Below, in pieces: positions 1 through 8,270 of a DNA stretch of 9,024 nucleotides (its first letter is position 1; each line of letters starts with the position of its first letter). The position numbers and the translations under genes are program-made. The notes beneath the pieces were generated by a model, which was given only the letters and a program-made list of their open reading frames with translations, searched no databases and had not been told where the DNA came from. The DNA lies in assembly GCA_000004985.1 (NCBI GenBank), contig GG739050.1. The stretch is one strand, 5' to 3'. The DNA is from Naegleria gruberi (taxonomy: Eukaryota).

Positions 1-43
1 ATAAGTAATCGACAATAAACGTTCATATTGTTCTTCACAAACT

Positions 44-112
44 CTCTCAGTGTGCGTGTGAGAGCAGCGGAGGTGAGAGTGTTGTTTGTGATTGTTGTGT
101 AATAAGGCTCCA
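44..112 (+). promoter_or_regulatory. GT-rich (CA-rich on the opposite strand) element with an internal inverted repeat (CTCTCA-9nt-TGAGAG, TGAGAG repeated), about 60-130 bp upstream of the profilin-like ATG. Candidate promoter element.
   Basis: Seen in sequence: 'caaactctctcagtgtgcgtgtgagagcagcggaggtgagagtgttgtttgtgattgttgtgt' is a G/T-rich island in otherwise AT-rich 5' flank. ctctca at ~46-51 pairs with tgagag at ~61-66. G-box/CA-rich elements are known promoter elements in dictyostelids, but this one is not verified. Confidence 0.3.
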
Positions 113-174
113 CATCATCACTCAACCACTTTTTTCTTATTAAAAAAAACAACCTCCTTAATTATTATACAAAA

Positions 175-588
175 ATGGCTTCTCTTCCATGGACTGCTTG
201 GGTTCAAGGTGCTTTGTTGGCTCCTCTTGCTCAATCTGGTGCTTCTGCTGTCTTGTTGATGGGTGCTGATGGAAGTATGTGGGGTTTGGCTGGTCAATGG
301 AATGTTTCTGCTCAAGAAGCTGCCACTTTGGCTAATGCTATTAAGACTAGTGCTGGTGCTCCAATTTCTTGCACTTTGGGTGGTGTTAAATTCATGGGTA
401 TGAGAGCTGATGACTCTGAATTTGTCTCCAATTCTACTCAAAAGACTTGTGTCTGTGGTCATATGTTGAAGAAGACCACCATTGTCGTTTGGGGTGCTTT
501 GGACCATGCCAGAAATATCAATGCTGCTGTCAGTAAGGTTGCTGAAGCTTTGGCTCAAGACCCATCTGTTGCTTCCCTCTTGAACTAA
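175..588 (+). CDS. Divergent profilin-family protein. 137 aa, complete, single exon.
   Basis: Clean ORF with aaaaATG start context and TAA stop. The protein carries profilin hallmarks: N-terminal W-x-x-W (LPWTAWV), 'GADGSMWG', the 'LGGVKFMGMRADD' block (compare yeast QKFMLLRADD and the GG.KYM of other profilins), and 'KKTTIVVWGALD' (compare KTGQALVVGIYD). Codon usage is strongly biased: Leu almost all TTG, Ala GCT, Gly GGT, Lys AAG, Arg AGA. G+C is about 46% by hand count. Confidence 0.8.
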   Translation: MASLPWTAWVQGALLAPLAQSGASAVLLMGADGSMWGLAGQWNVSAQEAATLANAIKTSAGAPISCTLGGVKFMGMRADDSEFVSNSTQKTCVCGHMLKKTTIVVWGALDHARNINAAVSKVAEALAQDPSVASLLN

Positions 589-759
589 ATTGTATAAAAC
601 AAAAATTTCAAAAAAAATAACAAATTCCCGAAAAATGACATTTTATTCATCCTCATCACTTTCTTTGTTCCGATTACGAGCTAAATAATTATTAATTTCA
701 TCTAATATTGGATCTAATATTTGTGTTAATTAACCAGAAGTCTGATCGTATATTGTTGC

Positions 760-765
760 AATAAA
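760..765 (+). promoter_or_regulatory. AATAAA hexamer, a possible poly-A signal for the profilin-like gene, about 170 nt after its stop.
   Basis: Seen in sequence: 'gcaataaaaactc'. No closer canonical hexamer after the stop at 586-588. Weak. Confidence 0.2.
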
Positions 766-861
766 AACTCTTCCGATCTTTTTTATCTTACAAGAATCAT
801 CATGCTAAAATTTAGAATATTTAAATTATTAATCAATACATTACATTAAACAACAACAAAC

Positions 862-1470
862 TTTCGGAACCAATTTCTTTATTGATTTGCAACATTTTAA
901 TATATAATGTATGAATATTGTATTAAAAATTACAAATTCAATTCAATCCGTAAAATATTCCTAATAAATATATTAAAAAAATTAAATCCATCAAATATTA
1001 TTATTAACTTGAATATTGAATAAAACGAGAAACAAAATTTCGGAAATAATTTCTTTAATGATTTGCATCATTTTAATATATAATTTATTATTAGTTGAGT
1101 TGAAATCACAAATTTCATTCAATCCGTAAAATATTCCTAATAAATATATTAAAAAAAATTAAATCCATCAAATATTATTTTTAAACTAAAAAAAGAATAC
1201 ATTAATTTTAAAAGTTTCGGAATTAATTTCTTTAATGATTTGCAACATTTTAATATATAATTTATTATTAGTTGAGTTGAAATCACAAATTTCATTCATT
1301 CCGTAAAATATTCCTAATAAATATATTAAAAAAAATTAAATCCATCAAATATTATTATTAACTTGAATATTGAATAAAACGAGAAACAAAATTTCGGAAA
1401 TAATTTCTTTGATGATTTGCAACAATGTAATATTGTTAATTATTATATTGGATTTAAAATTACAAATTTC
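862..1470. repeat. Tandem array of a ~177-bp AT-rich unit. Three full copies plus a diverged partial fourth, sitting directly upstream of the Asn-rich gene.
   Basis: The anchor 'tttcgg' recurs at 862, 1038, 1215 and 1392, giving periods of 176, 177 and 177 bp. Units 2 and 3 are near-identical over 'tttcggaa(a/t)taatttctttaatgatttgca(a/t)cattttaatatataatttattattagttgagttgaaatcacaaatttcattca(a/t)tccgtaaaatattcctaataaatatattaaaaaaaattaaatccatcaaatatt'. Unit 1 shares both ends but has a different middle. Unit 4 is truncated and diverges into the promoter. Confidence 0.85.
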
Positions 1471-1508
1471 CATGATGCTTGTTTCAATAAGAATCATTTC
1501 TGAAAAAA

Positions 1509-3080
1509 ATGAATGAAGACAATCAAGAAGTAGTGAGTGAAGACAGTCAAGAAGTTATGTCTGAAGAAGAACAATCAATCCAGCCAAATCCACCATCCAA
1601 TAACAAAAATTCGGATGAGAAAATCGGATCATCTGTGTTTGTAGTAGGAGTTTCTTCTGATGATATAGATAATTTACTAGAAATTCCTTTTGAAAAGTTG
1701 ATAGAAGTTGATCAAACAACTGATAAAGCAAAGGACTTCAAGATGAAAATAGATAATTTGAACAAAATAACAACTCCAGAGAAAGAAACGCAAGATGAAG
1801 AGCAATCATCAACTTCCATATTACCAACAGAAGAACAATTAACCGATGAAGAAACAGCAAGCAACTCAATTACAACAAAACAGGCAACAAAAAAACAAGC
1901 TAACAAAAGAGGAAGAAAGAAGAAAGAAGAGAAACCAGCAACAGAACTAAGAAGATCACACAGGTTACAAAAAAAACAAGTAAATTACGAAGAGGATGAG
2001 GATGATGATGATGTTGAAGAAGAACCAGAACCCCAAACAAAGAAAACAAAACCAAATACTGAAGAAAAGAAAAATTTAAATTCTAAAATTAATGATTACA
2101 TTGAACCTGTTCAGAAATCAACATTTGCAAGTGCAAGTGGTAGTAATAATTCTAATAGTAATAATAATATTAATTCCAATAATAACAATTATAATAATAA
2201 TTTTAATAATTTAATTAATAATAATTGTAATAATTATAATTGTAATTTGAACAATAACAATTTAAATAATAATTGCAATAATTTAAATAATAATTTCAAT
2301 AATAATTGCTATAGTTTTAATAATAATTTAAATAATTTTAATAATAATTATAATAATTGTAATAACAATATTTATAATAATTTTAATAATAATAATTTTA
2401 ATAATAATTTAAATTATAATTCAAATAATAATAATAATAATTGTAATAATAATTTAAATAATAATAATTTAGATAATAGTAATAATTATTCAGATAATAA
2501 TTATAACAACAATTTTAATAATCATTTTAATAATCATTTTAATAATCATAATTACAATTATTATAATAACAATAATAATAATTTTAATAATAATCACAGA
2601 AATATCAATAATAATTATAATAATAATTTTAATAATAATTTTAATAATAATTATAGAAATTCTATAATATATAATAATAATATTAATAATAATAACAACG
2701 ATAATTATTATTTTAATAATAATTTTCCTCATTATTATACTAATGAGTTTAATAATAATATGATCAGGCCAATTAATTTCAATCCAATTAATAATGGAAT
2801 TAGTGAAAAATATTTAGATGATCTTTTATTTCGTTTATTAAATGATGCCACAATAGAATCCACAATCAAAACTACAATAAGCAAACTTCTTTCCACAAAA
2901 ATAGAAGATTCAATAAGCAACAATTTTACAAAATTATTAGCAACTCCTAACAATAATTTGCCTATTAATTCACGCAATCATTATTCTATCCTTTCCGATG
3001 CTATTTTGTTGTGTAATAATAATAATAACAAACAAATTATTATGCAGCTTTTGATGAAAATTTTAAGAGAACAACAATAA
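1509..3080 (+). CDS. Asn-rich low-complexity protein. 523 aa, complete, apparently single exon. It has an acidic N-terminus, a basic cluster (KKQANKRGRKKKEEK, NLS or AT-hook-like), a D/E run, a ~200-aa Asn domain punctuated by Y/F/C/L/I/H, and a ~110-aa non-repetitive C-terminal domain.
   Basis: Uninterrupted ORF with start context 'gaaaaaaATGaat' and a TAA stop overlapping AATAAA. Codon usage is AT-rich (AAT, AAA, TTA, AGA, GGA, ACA), like the other low-bias genes in the window. The antisense ORFs inside it are low-complexity artefacts. Confidence 0.8.
   Translation: MNEDNQEVVSEDSQEVMSEEEQSIQPNPPSNNKNSDEKIGSSVFVVGVSSDDIDNLLEIPFEKLIEVDQTTDKAKDFKMKIDNLNKITTPEKETQDEEQSSTSILPTEEQLTDEETASNSITTKQATKKQANKRGRKKKEEKPATELRRSHRLQKKQVNYEEDEDDDDVEEEPEPQTKKTKPNTEEKKNLNSKINDYIEPVQKSTFASASGSNNSNSNNNINSNNNNYNNNFNNLINNNCNNYNCNLNNNNLNNNCNNLNNNFNNNCYSFNNNLNNFNNNYNNCNNNIYNNFNNNNFNNNLNYNSNNNNNNCNNNLNNNNLDNSNNYSDNNYNNNFNNHFNNHFNNHNYNYYNNNNNNFNNNHRNINNNYNNNFNNNFNNNYRNSIIYNNNINNNNNDNYYFNNNFPHYYTNEFNNNMIRPINFNPINNGISEKYLDDLLFRLLNDATIESTIKTTISKLLSTKIEDSISNNFTKLLATPNNNLPINSRNHYSILSDAILLCNNNNNKQIIMQLLMKILREQQ
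2143..2760 (+). repeat. Coding low-complexity tract built from a degenerate (AAT)n / 12-mer 'aataataattNt' microsatellite. It encodes the N-rich domain.
   Basis: Seen in sequence: long runs of aat aat aat interrupted by t-N-t codons (tat, ttt, tgt, tta/ttg, att, cat). Short higher-order repeats such as 'aat cat ttt aat' occur three times in a row at 2521-2556. Confidence 0.8.
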
Positions 3081-3081
3081 A
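3076..3081 (+). promoter_or_regulatory. AATAAA poly-A signal overlapping the TAA stop of the Asn-rich gene.
   Basis: 'caa caa TAA aaa atg' contains AATAAA at 3076-3081. A stop embedded in the poly-A signal is common in AT-rich protist genomes. Confidence 0.4.
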
Positions 3082-3245
3082 AAATGACCACAGAATGCGA
3101 AATTTTTTTTGAAATTTTTGTTATAAATATAGTGTATTATTATACTTTTCATTGTATTTAACTTGGATTGTTTTGTCTTGAATTTAACACAAAAGATCAC
3201 TTGTTATCATTAAGCATGTGATCAAAATATTTAATAGATATTAAG

Positions 3246-3429
3246 CTAATTGTGTGATGGTGGTCTCATAATTTGAACATGAACAGTAGATCTTTCTTCA
3301 TAATCACCTGGATCATTTTCAAACATTGGTGGATACTTCCTCTGGAATCCATATTCCACTTTGAATCCTCTCTCTGTGGCCAATTTAAATAAATTCATAT
3401 CTTCCTTAATCAACCAAGGTCGGTGATGT
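3246..3429 (-). CDS. Terminal exon of a Methyltransf_16/METTL21-like protein-lysine methyltransferase gene. It encodes the last 61 aa plus the TAG stop (...S|HHRPWLIKEDMNLFKLATERGFKVEYGFQRKYPPMFENDPGDYEERSTVHVQIMRPPSHN*).
   Basis: Minus-strand reading after the intron. The ORF is open from the acceptor (tatttAG|acatcaccg) to TAG (rc of cta at 3246-3248). Its reading phase matches a phase-2 junction (tc|a = Ser). The 'Y-x-HHRPW...F...A...GF' stretch is the usual C-terminal continuation after motif III/IV in this methyltransferase family. The ORF track does not list it because the upstream exon ends in an in-frame TAA created by the donor. Confidence 0.65.
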
Positions 3430-3513
3430 CTAAATATTATTAAAATTATTATTTAATTATTATTAATAATAATATTATACAATAAGTACTATTTGAAATT
3501 AACAATTACTTAC
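3430..3513 (-). other. 84-bp spliceosomal intron (phase 2) in the methyltransferase gene. GTAAGT donor, tatttAG acceptor, about 90% A+T.
   Basis: On the minus strand the upstream exon ends '...tat tc' and is followed by 'GTAAGTaattgtt...aataatatttAG'. Unspliced, the reading is tcg TAA, an immediate stop. Spliced, it restores a 61-codon ORF with family-typical residues. Confidence 0.65.
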
Positions 3514-3823
3514 GAATATCCGACATAAATCAAAGTATTAGGATGTGACAAATATTCACAACTGTCCAACAATTGAGAATGACAAAAATGATTGAACAAC
3601 AAGTCACTCAACAGAATGATATCAAAAGTTTCCTTCTCCTCTCCTTTTCCGAATGTTTGTTCTAATTTTTCACCCCAAGCATGTCCTCTCACTTCCATCA
3701 CAGTGTTATCTTCATCAAAATTCAATGCAACATTCCTCTTGAGATTTGGAATTAAATCTCCATCATCAATATCGGTAATAATAACCTTCTTGGCTCCGAG
3801 TTTGCCACAAGCTAAACTTGGAA
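3514..3823 (-). CDS. Internal/5' exon of the same methyltransferase gene, partial, with its upstream end lost in the assembly gap. It encodes ...PSLACGKLGAKKVIITDIDDGDLIPNLKRNVALNFDEDNTVMEVRGHAWGEKLEQTFGKGEEKETFDIILLSDLLFNHFCHSQLLDSCEYLSHPNTLIYVGYS.
   Basis: Class-I SAM-methyltransferase motifs of the Methyltransf_16 family: the motif I tail 'GKLGAKKVIITD' (compare ...LGAxKVxxTD), 'LIPNLKRNVALN', 'AWGE', and motif 'FDIILLSDLLF' (compare FDxIxxSDxxY). The N-terminal part, including GxGxG and the start codon, is hidden in the N run. Confidence 0.75.
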
Positions 3824-6800
3824 NNNNNNNNNNNNNNNNNNNNNNNNNNNNNNNNNNNNNNNNNNNNNNNNNNNNNNNNNNNNNNNNNNNNNNNNNNNNN
3901 NNNNNNNNNNNNNNNNNNNNNNNNNNNNNNNNNNNNNNNNNNNNNNNNNNNNNNNNNNNNNNNNNNNNNNNNNNNNNNNNNNNNNNNNNNNNNNNNNNNN
4001 NNNNNNNNNNNNNNNNNNNNNNNNNNNNNNNNNNNNNNNNNNNNNNNNNNNNNNNNNNNNNNNNNNNNNNNNNNNNNNNNNNNNNNNNNNNNNNNNNNNN
4101 NNNNNNNNNNNNNNNNNNNNNNNNNNNNNNNNNNNNNNNNNNNNNNNNNNNNNNNNNNNNNNNNNNNNNNNNNNNNNNNNNNNNNNNNNNNNNNNNNNNN
4201 NNNNNNNNNNNNNNNNNNNNNNNNNNNNNNNNNNNNNNNNNNNNNNNNNNNNNNNNNNNNNNNNNNNNNNNNNNNNNNNNNNNNNNNNNNNNNNNNNNNN
4301 NNNNNNNNNNNNNNNNNNNNNNNNNNNNNNNNNNNNNNNNNNNNNNNNNNNNNNNNNNNNNNNNNNNNNNNNNNNNNNNNNNNNNNNNNNNNNNNNNNNN
4401 NNNNNNNNNNNNNNNNNNNNNNNNNNNNNNNNNNNNNNNNNNNNNNNNNNNNNNNNNNNNNNNNNNNNNNNNNNNNNNNNNNNNNNNNNNNNNNNNNNNN
4501 NNNNNNNNNNNNNNNNNNNNNNNNNNNNNNNNNNNNNNNNNNNNNNNNNNNNNNNNNNNNNNNNNNNNNNNNNNNNNNNNNNNNNNNNNNNNNNNNNNNN
4601 NNNNNNNNNNNNNNNNNNNNNNNNNNNNNNNNNNNNNNNNNNNNNNNNNNNNNNNNNNNNNNNNNNNNNNNNNNNNNNNNNNNNNNNNNNNNNNNNNNNN
4701 NNNNNNNNNNNNNNNNNNNNNNNNNNNNNNNNNNNNNNNNNNNNNNNNNNNNNNNNNNNNNNNNNNNNNNNNNNNNNNNNNNNNNNNNNNNNNNNNNNNN
4801 NNNNNNNNNNNNNNNNNNNNNNNNNNNNNNNNNNNNNNNNNNNNNNNNNNNNNNNNNNNNNNNNNNNNNNNNNNNNNNNNNNNNNNNNNNNNNNNNNNNN
4901 NNNNNNNNNNNNNNNNNNNNNNNNNNNNNNNNNNNNNNNNNNNNNNNNNNNNNNNNNNNNNNNNNNNNNNNNNNNNNNNNNNNNNNNNNNNNNNNNNNNN
5001 NNNNNNNNNNNNNNNNNNNNNNNNNNNNNNNNNNNNNNNNNNNNNNNNNNNNNNNNNNNNNNNNNNNNNNNNNNNNNNNNNNNNNNNNNNNNNNNNNNNN
5101 NNNNNNNNNNNNNNNNNNNNNNNNNNNNNNNNNNNNNNNNNNNNNNNNNNNNNNNNNNNNNNNNNNNNNNNNNNNNNNNNNNNNNNNNNNNNNNNNNNNN
5201 NNNNNNNNNNNNNNNNNNNNNNNNNNNNNNNNNNNNNNNNNNNNNNNNNNNNNNNNNNNNNNNNNNNNNNNNNNNNNNNNNNNNNNNNNNNNNNNNNNNN
5301 NNNNNNNNNNNNNNNNNNNNNNNNNNNNNNNNNNNNNNNNNNNNNNNNNNNNNNNNNNNNNNNNNNNNNNNNNNNNNNNNNNNNNNNNNNNNNNNNNNNN
5401 NNNNNNNNNNNNNNNNNNNNNNNNNNNNNNNNNNNNNNNNNNNNNNNNNNNNNNNNNNNNNNNNNNNNNNNNNNNNNNNNNNNNNNNNNNNNNNNNNNNN
5501 NNNNNNNNNNNNNNNNNNNNNNNNNNNNNNNNNNNNNNNNNNNNNNNNNNNNNNNNNNNNNNNNNNNNNNNNNNNNNNNNNNNNNNNNNNNNNNNNNNNN
5601 NNNNNNNNNNNNNNNNNNNNNNNNNNNNNNNNNNNNNNNNNNNNNNNNNNNNNNNNNNNNNNNNNNNNNNNNNNNNNNNNNNNNNNNNNNNNNNNNNNNN
5701 NNNNNNNNNNNNNNNNNNNNNNNNNNNNNNNNNNNNNNNNNNNNNNNNNNNNNNNNNNNNNNNNNNNNNNNNNNNNNNNNNNNNNNNNNNNNNNNNNNNN
5801 NNNNNNNNNNNNNNNNNNNNNNNNNNNNNNNNNNNNNNNNNNNNNNNNNNNNNNNNNNNNNNNNNNNNNNNNNNNNNNNNNNNNNNNNNNNNNNNNNNNN
5901 NNNNNNNNNNNNNNNNNNNNNNNNNNNNNNNNNNNNNNNNNNNNNNNNNNNNNNNNNNNNNNNNNNNNNNNNNNNNNNNNNNNNNNNNNNNNNNNNNNNN
6001 NNNNNNNNNNNNNNNNNNNNNNNNNNNNNNNNNNNNNNNNNNNNNNNNNNNNNNNNNNNNNNNNNNNNNNNNNNNNNNNNNNNNNNNNNNNNNNNNNNNN
6101 NNNNNNNNNNNNNNNNNNNNNNNNNNNNNNNNNNNNNNNNNNNNNNNNNNNNNNNNNNNNNNNNNNNNNNNNNNNNNNNNNNNNNNNNNNNNNNNNNNNN
6201 NNNNNNNNNNNNNNNNNNNNNNNNNNNNNNNNNNNNNNNNNNNNNNNNNNNNNNNNNNNNNNNNNNNNNNNNNNNNNNNNNNNNNNNNNNNNNNNNNNNN
6301 NNNNNNNNNNNNNNNNNNNNNNNNNNNNNNNNNNNNNNNNNNNNNNNNNNNNNNNNNNNNNNNNNNNNNNNNNNNNNNNNNNNNNNNNNNNNNNNNNNNN
6401 NNNNNNNNNNNNNNNNNNNNNNNNNNNNNNNNNNNNNNNNNNNNNNNNNNNNNNNNNNNNNNNNNNNNNNNNNNNNNNNNNNNNNNNNNNNNNNNNNNNN
6501 NNNNNNNNNNNNNNNNNNNNNNNNNNNNNNNNNNNNNNNNNNNNNNNNNNNNNNNNNNNNNNNNNNNNNNNNNNNNNNNNNNNNNNNNNNNNNNNNNNNN
6601 NNNNNNNNNNNNNNNNNNNNNNNNNNNNNNNNNNNNNNNNNNNNNNNNNNNNNNNNNNNNNNNNNNNNNNNNNNNNNNNNNNNNNNNNNNNNNNNNNNNN
6701 NNNNNNNNNNNNNNNNNNNNNNNNNNNNNNNNNNNNNNNNNNNNNNNNNNNNNNNNNNNNNNNNNNNNNNNNNNNNNNNNNNNNNNNNNNNNNNNNNNNN

Positions 6801-7548
6801 NNNNNNNNNNNNNNNNNNNNNNNNNNNNNNNNNNNNNNNNNNNNNNNNNNNNNNNNNNNNNNNNNNNNNNNNNNNNNNNNNNNNNNNNNNNNNNNNNNNN
6901 NNNNNNNNNNNNNNNNNNNNNNNNNNNNNNNNNNNNNNNNNNNNNNNNNNNNNNNNNNNNNNNNNNNNNNNNNNNNNNNNNNNNNNNNNNNNNNNNNNNN
7001 NNNNNNNNNNNNNNNNNNNNNNNNNNNNNNNNNNNNNNNNNNNNNNNNNNNNNNNNNNNNNNNNNNNNNNNNNNNNNNNNNNNNNNNNNNNNNNNNNNNN
7101 NNNNNNNNNNNNNNNNNNNNNNNNNNNNNNNNNNNNNNNNNNNNNNNNNNNNNNNNNNNNNNNNNNNNNNNNNNNNNNNNNNNNNNNNNNNNNNNNNNNN
7201 NNNNNNNNNNNNNNNNNNNNNNNNNNNNNNNNNNNNNNNNNNNNNNNNNNNNNNNNNNNNNNNNNNNNNNNNNNNNNNNNNNNNNNNNNNNNNNNNNNNN
7301 NNNNNNNNNNNNNNNNNNNNNNNNNNNNNNNNNNNNNNNNNNNNNNNNNNNNNNNNNNNNNNNNNNNNNNNNNNNNNNNNNNNNNNNNNNNNNNNNNNNN
7401 NNNNNNNNNNNNNNNNNNNNNNNNNNNNNNNNNNNNNNNNNNNNNNNNNNNNNNNNNNNNNNNNNNNNNNNNNNNNNNNNNNNNNNNNNNNNNNNNNNNN
7501 NNNNNNNNNNNNNNNNNNNNNNNNNNNNNNNNNNNNNNNNNNNNNNNN
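3824..7548. other. Assembly gap of 3,725 consecutive N. No sequence information.
   Basis: Seen directly. The ORFs 3592-7722(+), 3812-7594(-), 3818-7582(+) and most of 3510-8297(-) are read-through artefacts (poly-X). Confidence 0.99.
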
Positions 7549-8270
7549 ACGTATGCAAGTCCTTCATTACCAAGCCAATTAACGGAAATACCAAGATTGG
7601 TCAATTGTTTCAATTCACTTAAATATTTTGCTCCTTCAACACCAACACTATTTTCAGCAATAAATAGAGTGGTCAATTGGTTCAATTCACTTATATATTT
7701 AGATCCTTTAGCACCAATATGATTGCCATAAATATTAAGAGTGGTTAATTGTTTCAATTCACTTAGGTATTTAGCTCCAATATGAAAAATATTATGACTA
7801 CGAATATCAAGATTGGTCAATTGTTTCAATTCGCTAATATATCTAACTCCCTCACCACGAATTTGACTGCCATATATATGAAGACTTTTTAATTGTTTCA
7901 ATTCACTTAGATGATGAACTTCTTCTTCTTCAATTCTAATAACAAGTTTAGTTAGTGATTTCATCAAGATTAATTTTTTAAAAGTATCCTCACTCGTTGC
8001 ATTAACTTTAAGAGTTGCAATATTCTGTAAAAATTGGCCACTCATTTCGACACCAAATTTACAATTCGAATCAAGATTATTACATGTTGATAAAATAACA
8101 TTGTACCACTGTTTGGATACCAATGCACAATGCAAGACAATAAAATTAAAATCTTCAAAGAAGGAAATAATTTCATATATAATGTCATTGTGAAATTTAT
8201 AGTCTTGTGCTACGTTCATCATCAACAAGTCCTTTGAAAGTTGTGATTTACATGTTGTGAGTTTTTCCAT
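7549..8270 (-). CDS. F-box/leucine-rich-repeat protein, N-terminal ~240 aa. The 3' remainder is lost in the gap. There is an F-box-like motif near the N-terminus and at least five 24-aa RNI-type LRRs (LSELKQLTNLDIRSHNIFHIGAKY...).
   Basis: The preferred start is the ATG at 8270 ('tcattaaaaaaaATGgaaaaactc' -> MEKLTTCKSQ...). The ORF-track start at 8297 is a TTG. The F-box-like segment is 'DIIYEIISFFEDFNFIVLHCALVSKQWYNVI', with the conserved hydrophobic spacing and the S/C-K-x-W of F-boxes. It is followed by repeated 'LSELKQL(T/K)(N/S/T)L-I-G--IG--G-KY' units. Codon usage (TTA/TTG, CGT/AGA, GGT) matches the neighbouring low-bias genes. Confidence 0.75.
7590..7925 (-). repeat. 72-bp periodic coding repeat (24-aa LRR units) with high nucleotide-level identity. 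Five copies are visible and the array continues into the gap.
   Basis: Plus-strand 'ggtcaattgtttcaattcactt' and variants recur at 7599, 7671, 7743 and 7815, with '..taattgtttcaattcactt' ending at 7895. The period is exactly 72 bp. The sequence right at the gap edge (7549-7590) still encodes LRR-like ...GISVNWLGNEGLAY. Confidence 0.85.

Follow-up and report, generated by a model that had tools for sequence, protein, structure and literature searches.

The 177-bp tandem array in the stretch of Naegleria gruberi DNA analyzed here is, with a probability that we put near 0.7, a tandem repeat internal to a 2.5-kb cut-and-paste-type mobile element that is bounded by terminal inverted repeats (TIRs) and was recently inserted in one haplotype of the species. 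The stretch, hereafter the window, is a complete small scaffold of 9,024 bp in the N. gruberi assembly. A first-pass annotation had read the array as a resident local minisatellite; array and adjoining Asn-rich gene instead lie together inside an insertion of 2,523 bp that is bounded by TIRs and a target-site duplication and is absent from another allele. The features on which this reading is built are collected in Table 1.

Table 1. Coordinates of the insertion, its parts, and the two host genes that flank it (window positions)
Feature	Start	End	Strand	Remarks
Profilin gene	175	588	+	Pfam PF00235, E = 6e-17; 100% identical to N. gruberi NCBI partial protein
Left copy of target-site duplication, TATAAA	593	598		Window match to contigs L001 and L002 ends at 598
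Whole insertion, TIR-bounded mobile element (probable)	599	3121	+	2,523 bp, 20.8% G+C; absent from L001 and L002
Left TIR, ACAAAAATTTCAAAAAAAAT	599	618	+	20/20 complementary to 3102-3121
Left subterminal region	619	861	+	243 nt; unique, last ~60 nt a degenerate partial unit
Repeat unit 1	862	1037	+	176 nt; divergent middle patch
Repeat unit 2	1038	1214	+	177 nt; divergent 3' patch
Repeat unit 3	1215	1391	+	177 nt; equals unit 2 in columns 1-142 and unit 1 in columns 143-177
Partial repeat unit 4	1392	1470	+	About 79 nt; most diverged
Asn-rich ORF within the element	1509	3080	+	523 aa; ATG at 1509, 38 nt after array end
Right TIR	3102	3121	-	Exact reverse complement of left TIR
Right copy of target-site duplication, TATAAA	3122	3127		Match to L001 and L002 resumes at 3122
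Methyltransf_16-type lysine methyltransferase, 3' exons	3246	3823	-	Pfam PF10294, E = 1.5e-10

The evidence that carries this reading is an empty allele. Two independently assembled contigs of run ERR1078381 (L001 and L002, one from an ENA assembly and one from Logan) were found through an exact profilin match and are 99.6% identical to the flanks in the window. Both track the window past the profilin stop codon and then diverge from it, joining base 598 to base 3122, and the left and right matches overlap by 6 bases, TATAAA. When the empty allele was rebuilt from the window (1-598 plus 3128-3400) and compared with L001, the two aligned without a gap over 806 columns, of which 3 were mismatched; in the flanks, the filled and the empty allele differ by 0.4%. 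The reference scaffold therefore has 2,523 bp between the two junctions that neither contig contains. The contigs also differ from each other, by a 6-nt GTGTGC indel upstream of profilin (window 50-55) and by SNPs, indicating that the ERR1078381 sample holds at least two haplotypes, and the insertion site is empty in both. Naegleria is a heterozygous diploid (PMC9928731), and a 941,567-bp N. gruberi contig carries a partial profilin protein 100% identical to that of the window, which fits the notion that the small, separate 9,024-bp scaffold represents an alternative haplotype of the locus.

The breakpoints defined by the empty allele are exactly where the TIRs begin, as expected for the ends of a class II cut-and-paste transposon. 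At the base composition of the element, 20 complementary bases would arise by chance with a probability of ~2e-10, and a search of the window for ACAAAAATTTCAAAAAAAAT with up to 3 mismatches returned only two matches, both of them element ends (0.06 expected). TATAAA, found once in each empty-allele contig and twice in the window (within 1-3823 only at 593 and 3122), has the form of the target-site duplication that such a transposon leaves, and the junction data are equally compatible with a shorter one, ATAA (4 bp) or TA (2 bp). Taken together, TIRs lying exactly at independently defined breakpoints, a duplication, and a footprint-free empty site give the region from 599 to 3121 the classical signature of a cut-and-paste DNA transposon insertion.

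From left to right the element comprises a TIR of 20 nt, 243 nt of subterminal sequence, the 616-bp array, 38 nt, an ORF of 1,572 nt, 21 nt, and the second 20-nt TIR, so that the array (855-1470) falls inside it and is a transposon-borne tandem repeat. The G+C content is 20.8% for the element, 17% for the array, and 7.6% for the Asn-rich core of the ORF, compared to 32-46% for the neighboring genes. In the region from 619 to 861, no ORF of at least 50 aa and no Rfam or tRNA match was found. The word AAAAATGAC occurs at 631-639 and 3080-3088 and nowhere else in window 1-3823; its two copies lie ~32 nt inside each element end, in direct and not inverted orientation, and may be there by chance. 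The unit junction AACAAAATTTCGGAA was considered as a possible copy of the terminal repeat ACAAAAATTTC... and rejected, since local alignments of the ends against the array scored within the range of shuffled controls.

On the host side, the insertion sits 10 nt past the profilin stop codon, in the spacer between profilin and a methyltransferase gene that is convergent with it and runs into an N gap. The stop-to-stop distance between the two genes is 128 nt in the empty allele versus 2,657 nt in the filled one. The native 3' untranslated region (UTR) of profilin, a codon-biased gene of 46% G+C, is replaced by the insertion (586-598, 3122-3248). The methyltransferase gene has an 84-nt intron on the minus strand (3430-3513) that is canonical (GTAAGT...TTTAG), very A/T rich, and weakly scoring as a tandem repeat. 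Three further genes of the window are all on the minus strand, namely this methyltransferase gene, an F-box/LRR gene, and a WD40 gene, with the 3.7-kb N gap between the first two; the N run (3824-7548, 3,725 nt) has a truncated methyltransferase gene at one end and a truncated F-box/LRR gene at the other, and the 1,595-aa "ORF" that crosses it is an artifact. A further repeat, at 7586-7912 (72-nt period, 4.5 copies, 72% matches), corresponds to the 24-residue leucine-rich repeats of the minus-strand F-box/LRR protein.

TRF reported a single array at 855-1470, with a period of 177, 3.5 copies, 84% matches, 1% indels, and a score of 885, and a gap-free repeat finder gave unit start-to-start spacings of 176, 177, and 177. 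The head-to-tail array of 3.5 copies of a 176- to 177-bp unit described in the first-pass annotation is therefore confirmed by both programs, and it is a minisatellite in the sense of at least two head-to-tail copies of a 10- to 200-bp unit. The unit boundaries (862-1037, 1038-1214, 1215-1391, and 1392 to ~1470) were set by the register of TTTCGGAA. Pairwise identity is 81% between units 1 and 2, 91% between units 1 and 3, and 89% between units 2 and 3; identity of unit 4 to the others is ~70%. Just 5' of unit 1 there is a degenerate partial "unit 0" (799-903 versus 975-1079, 64% identity). The short motifs that had been called identical in every unit turned out to vary: the unit starts read TTTCGGAA followed by CC, AT, TT, or AT and then AATTTC, and AATCCGTAAAATATTCC is not the same in all units, being ATTCCG... 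in unit 3.

The differences among units 1-3, which amount to 9-19% overall, are concentrated in two patches, inside which divergence reaches about 35-50%. Across columns 47-80, unit 2 agrees with unit 3 at every position (34/34), and unit 1 matches at 22 of 34; in columns 143-177, it is units 1 and 3 that agree throughout (35/35), with unit 2 matching at 18 of 35, in line with the earlier description of a 3' end common to units 1 and 3 and different in unit 2. Outside both patches, unit pairs are 93-100% identical, and blocks of at least 60 nt that are 98-100% conserved between units (columns 81-142) adjoin the hypervariable patches. Among 33 informative sites, the first 16 comprise 15 at which unit 1 is the odd one and a single site at which unit 2 is, and at all of the last 17 the odd one is unit 2. 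This ordering is non-random (P of ~5e-7, corrected for the choice of breakpoint), which bears out the patchwork, as opposed to a simple gradient of divergence, noted in the first-pass annotation. The distinct middle segment ascribed to unit 1 is also present, at a length of about 33 bp rather than ~45 bp. The reported likeness of unit 4 to the middle of unit 1 is seen over 24 nt (915-938 versus 1445-1468, 92%) but does not extend to the whole patch, across which unit 4 is equidistant from the two variants (23/33 versus 22/33).

Because the differences are clustered far from randomly, point mutation alone did not produce the mosaic. The patchwork had been said to imply crossing-over or conversion between repeat variants, which does not strictly follow: segment combinations A-C, B-D, and B-C are the only ones present, three of the four possible, and a tree also fits. 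Two histories are accordingly compatible with the data. Unit 3 could be a recombinant that joins the 5' part of unit 2 to the 3' part of unit 1 through unequal exchange or conversion, or unit 3 could be near-ancestral, with units 1 and 2 each carrying a replaced or hypervariable patch. The equidistance of unit 4 from both middle variants favors the presence of a hypervariable middle segment in the unit.

The age of the array relative to the insertion can be judged from these figures. Units that differ by 9-19% are set in flanks that differ by 0.4%, next to a perfect duplication and perfect termini, which argues that the array most likely predates the insertion and was carried in with it; the comparison assumes roughly neutral, point-mutation-like divergence, and the perfect termini sample just 26 nt. 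If the array does not change at a rate orders of magnitude above that of the sequence around it, the mosaic of 3.5 units would already have been present at landing, and its history would thus belong to the element and not to the locus. We propose a model in which replication slippage or unequal exchange would first build the array within the lineage of the element, replacement or conversion patch by patch would then yield the mosaic, and the array would reach the spacer between profilin and the methyltransferase gene as part of the element.

The Asn-rich ORF consists of an acidic/basic N-terminal part of 210 aa, an Asn-rich low-complexity core (2141-2760), and a helical C-terminal part of ~105 aa. 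The chance that no stop codon would occur is 5e-8 over the 210 N-terminal codons and 1e-4 over the 105 C-terminal ones, making it very unlikely that 1509-3080 is open by chance. The core consists of coding repeats based on AAT (periods 12, 21, 33, and 45 nt by TRF) and looks like an expanded coding microsatellite. At the very start of the ORF (1508-1567), 24 nt are duplicated in tandem (2.5 copies, 80% matches) and encode NEDNQEVV / SEDSQEVM / SEEEQ. A basic motif, KRGRKKK...RRSHRLQKKQVNYEE (window 1950-1990, ORF residues ~148-162), is followed by an acidic run and matches no Pfam family at E <= 10; we take it to resemble the basic patches of nuclear or chromatin-binding proteins.

The ORF as a whole matched no Pfam family even at an E value of <= 10, and the only homologue among 5.8 billion proteins was the NCBI model of this very ORF, annotated as "predicted protein [Naegleria gruberi]"; neither an orthologue nor a paralogue was found in the Naegleria proteomes within that protein collection, and no relative was found in JGI metagenome or IMG/VR contigs. 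The only two matches of an exhaustive HMMER search of representative sequences (E = 1e-68 and 3e-7) were discarded as additive artifacts on giant repeat proteins, in which weak matches to tandem modules (38 in one case and 6 in the other, with a BLASTP E value of ~1e-3 each) had been added up. A single-sequence AlphaFold (AF2) model of the C-terminal 107 aa was helical only and, at a pLDDT of 48.6, too poor for a fold search. Outside the low-complexity core, the ORF leaves no room for a recognizable DDE domain. The sole ORF of the element has no transposase domain of the kind that an autonomous element would encode, and the element would therefore be non-autonomous and mobilized in trans.

Second copies of the unit, the TIR, or the ORF were sought in the JGI metagenomes, IMG/VR, the GTDB genomes, and the 5.8-billion-protein collection, and none was found; the DNA collections among these are metagenomes, viral contigs, and prokaryotic genomes, to which the N. 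gruberi genome beyond the window does not belong. No exact match to TCCGTAAAATATTCCTAATAAATA, from the unit core, or to TTTCGGAANNAATTTCTTTNATGATTTGCA, from the unit start, was found in JGI metagenomes, IMG/VR, or GTDB genomes, and six-frame peptides of the array and left arm had no match in the protein collection at E <= 10. The 20-mer of the terminal repeat did occur in 8 IMG/VR phage contigs. These are single matches, with BLAST similarity confined to 20-22 nt at most, and are attributed to chance, since the word is A/T rich. A cut-and-paste element can be single copy.

Several other explanations were weighed against the transposon-borne origin of the array. The view taken in the first-pass annotation, in which a host minisatellite expanded in place in a host promoter as an array of transcription factor sites, draws on the position of the array directly upstream of the ORF and on the recurrence of short motifs in each unit. 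The placement in the promoter region of the Asn-rich gene stands, in that the array ends 38 nt before the ATG, but the promoter is not a resident host one: gene and array are jointly missing from the other allele, with clean junctions made of TIRs and target-site duplication, the ORF is without orthologue or paralogue in the Naegleria proteomes covered, and the units diverge far more than the flanking haplotypes do. The empty allele largely refutes this view, which we now consider very unlikely. The same annotation had offered a fragment of an uncharacterized dispersed repeat as a second option, which came nearer the mark with respect to the insertion signature, though not with respect to many copies; the target-site duplications at hundreds of loci that it had named as decisive against a local minisatellite were found at one locus. 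A highly improbable explanation reverses the polarity of the event, with the 2.5-kb segment ancestral and the ERR1078381 allele a deletion between TATAAA microhomologies that involved no transposition. While microhomology-mediated deletion would account for a direct repeat of 6 nt at each breakpoint, perfect 20-bp inverted repeats starting exactly at those breakpoints would be left unexplained, and the 128-bp convergent spacer that remains is a normal compact Naegleria intergenic region. An assembly artifact, either a mis-joined small scaffold or a collapsed or expanded copy number of the array, is brought to mind by the nature of the window, an orphan scaffold of 9 kb of which 3.7 kb are an N gap. 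We regard it as scarcely credible: mis-assembly would not create a precise target-site duplication together with inverted repeats, units that differ by 9-19% are easy to place, and an array of 616 bp is presumably short enough for single Sanger reads.

Rather doubtful, though worth considering, is the proposal that the array is a functional repeat of the element, providing units that bind a transposase or a transcription factor, a dosage-tunable enhancer or promoter for the ORF, or extra transposase sites. The CG-containing hexamer TTCCGA/TCGGAA is found 8 times compared to 1.1 expected, with one copy per unit and others in the element at 668, 771, and 2993, and this excess weakly suggests a binding-site role; however, four of the eight matches come simply from the repeat copies, and another, at 3647, is not in the element at all. 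The conserved blocks of columns 81-142 beside hypervariable patches and the adjacency of the array to the ORF start are both consistent with function, whereas the similarity of the array to the termini is not above chance, and the array, 263 nt from the left end and lacking a right-end counterpart, is unlike typical subterminal clusters of binding sites. Under the preferred reading, that of an internal repeat carried by the element, the array is a passenger structure that is also the bulk of the upstream region of the ORF, and any regulatory role is putative. On function the data support a single conclusion, a positional one: since the array and the following 38 nt fill nearly all of the space from the left end to the ORF, the ORF promoter most likely lies in or adjoining the array. 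Any action of the array would then be that of an upstream region belonging to the element, as opposed to an evolved host regulatory minisatellite. A more far-reaching and unlikely extension is that the element represents an undescribed, recently active family that moves a self-contained gene cassette (an orphan Asn-rich protein of nuclear type together with its upstream region of 177-bp repeats) without a recognizable transposase. In that case, either the orphan protein would have an unrecognized part in mobility or in evading silencing, or the element would be a means by which new genes spread in Heterolobosea.

A host promoter minisatellite is a plausible misreading of the array, and these results correct it by showing that repeat and gene are one mobile insertion; they also supply a concrete and apparently recent TIR-element insertion polymorphism for the study of Naegleria biology. 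The exact ends, with a 20-bp TIR and the target site, could help to find an autonomous partner and could in principle be built into a transposon tool for a species in which genetics is limited. In addition, an insertion 10 nt after the profilin stop is a natural test of the effect of a transposon on a neighboring gene.

Tandem repeats within DNA transposons are well documented (PMC8101967, PMC4079207); the phenomenon is well known already, and a transposon-borne minisatellite is of an ordinary kind. Tetris of Drosophila virilis (PMC4079207) and many Merlin families (PMC8101967, where the wider literature is cited as well) likewise have an array of 100- to 200-bp units between TIRs that travels with the element, and their units are similarly diverged and patchy. 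Tetris differs in being a foldback element with long, repeat-built termini whose repeats expanded into a satellite (PMC4079207), and Merlin differs in its IS1595-type transposase and 8- to 9-bp duplications (PMC8101967). The Naegleria element, on the other hand, has TIRs of 20 bp and a duplication no longer than 6 bp; its array counts 3.5 units, it is known from one copy, and neither a transposase nor a satellite derivative goes with it. It is not a foldback element, as its inverted repeat spans 20 bp and its array is one-sided and unlike the termini, nor is it a MITE (less than ~800 bp, non-coding, and of high copy number), given a length of 2,523 bp and a 523-aa ORF.

The length of the duplication bears on class membership. 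Duplications of 2, 4, and 6 bp all fit from the one copy, and the element is accordingly placed in no superfamily; those of 8-11 bp are excluded because only 6 nt are duplicated. Lengths of 8-11 bp are typical of hAT, Mutator, and Merlin, and the observed duplication of at most 6 nt argues against typical membership in these groups. Six-base-pair duplications are made by the hAT6 group, Dada, and IS3EU, and TA duplications by Tc1/mariner; the Naegleria element is compatible with any of these in duplication length, which a single copy does not fix. It has no transposase by which to classify it, and its termini (ACAAAAATTTC...) presumably do not resemble the usual consensus ends of these groups. 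Pack-MULE-like and transduplicating elements are non-autonomous, carry cargo, and are bounded by TIRs and duplications of 9-11 bp. The Naegleria element resembles them in that its sole ORF is also not a transposase, and it differs from them in its short TIRs, in its duplication of at most 6 bp, and in an ORF for which the protein collection held no host parent gene. Tandem repeats in promoters tune expression in yeast and other eukaryotes, and they too form variable-looking arrays directly upstream of an ORF; the Naegleria array differs in lying inside a mobile insertion. Finally, a survey of N. gruberi repeats could classify only a small fraction as known transposable elements (PMC12344493), and an undescribed element at this locus fits a genome whose repeats are mostly unclassified; what we describe is probably one such Naegleria element, carrying a minisatellite of its own.
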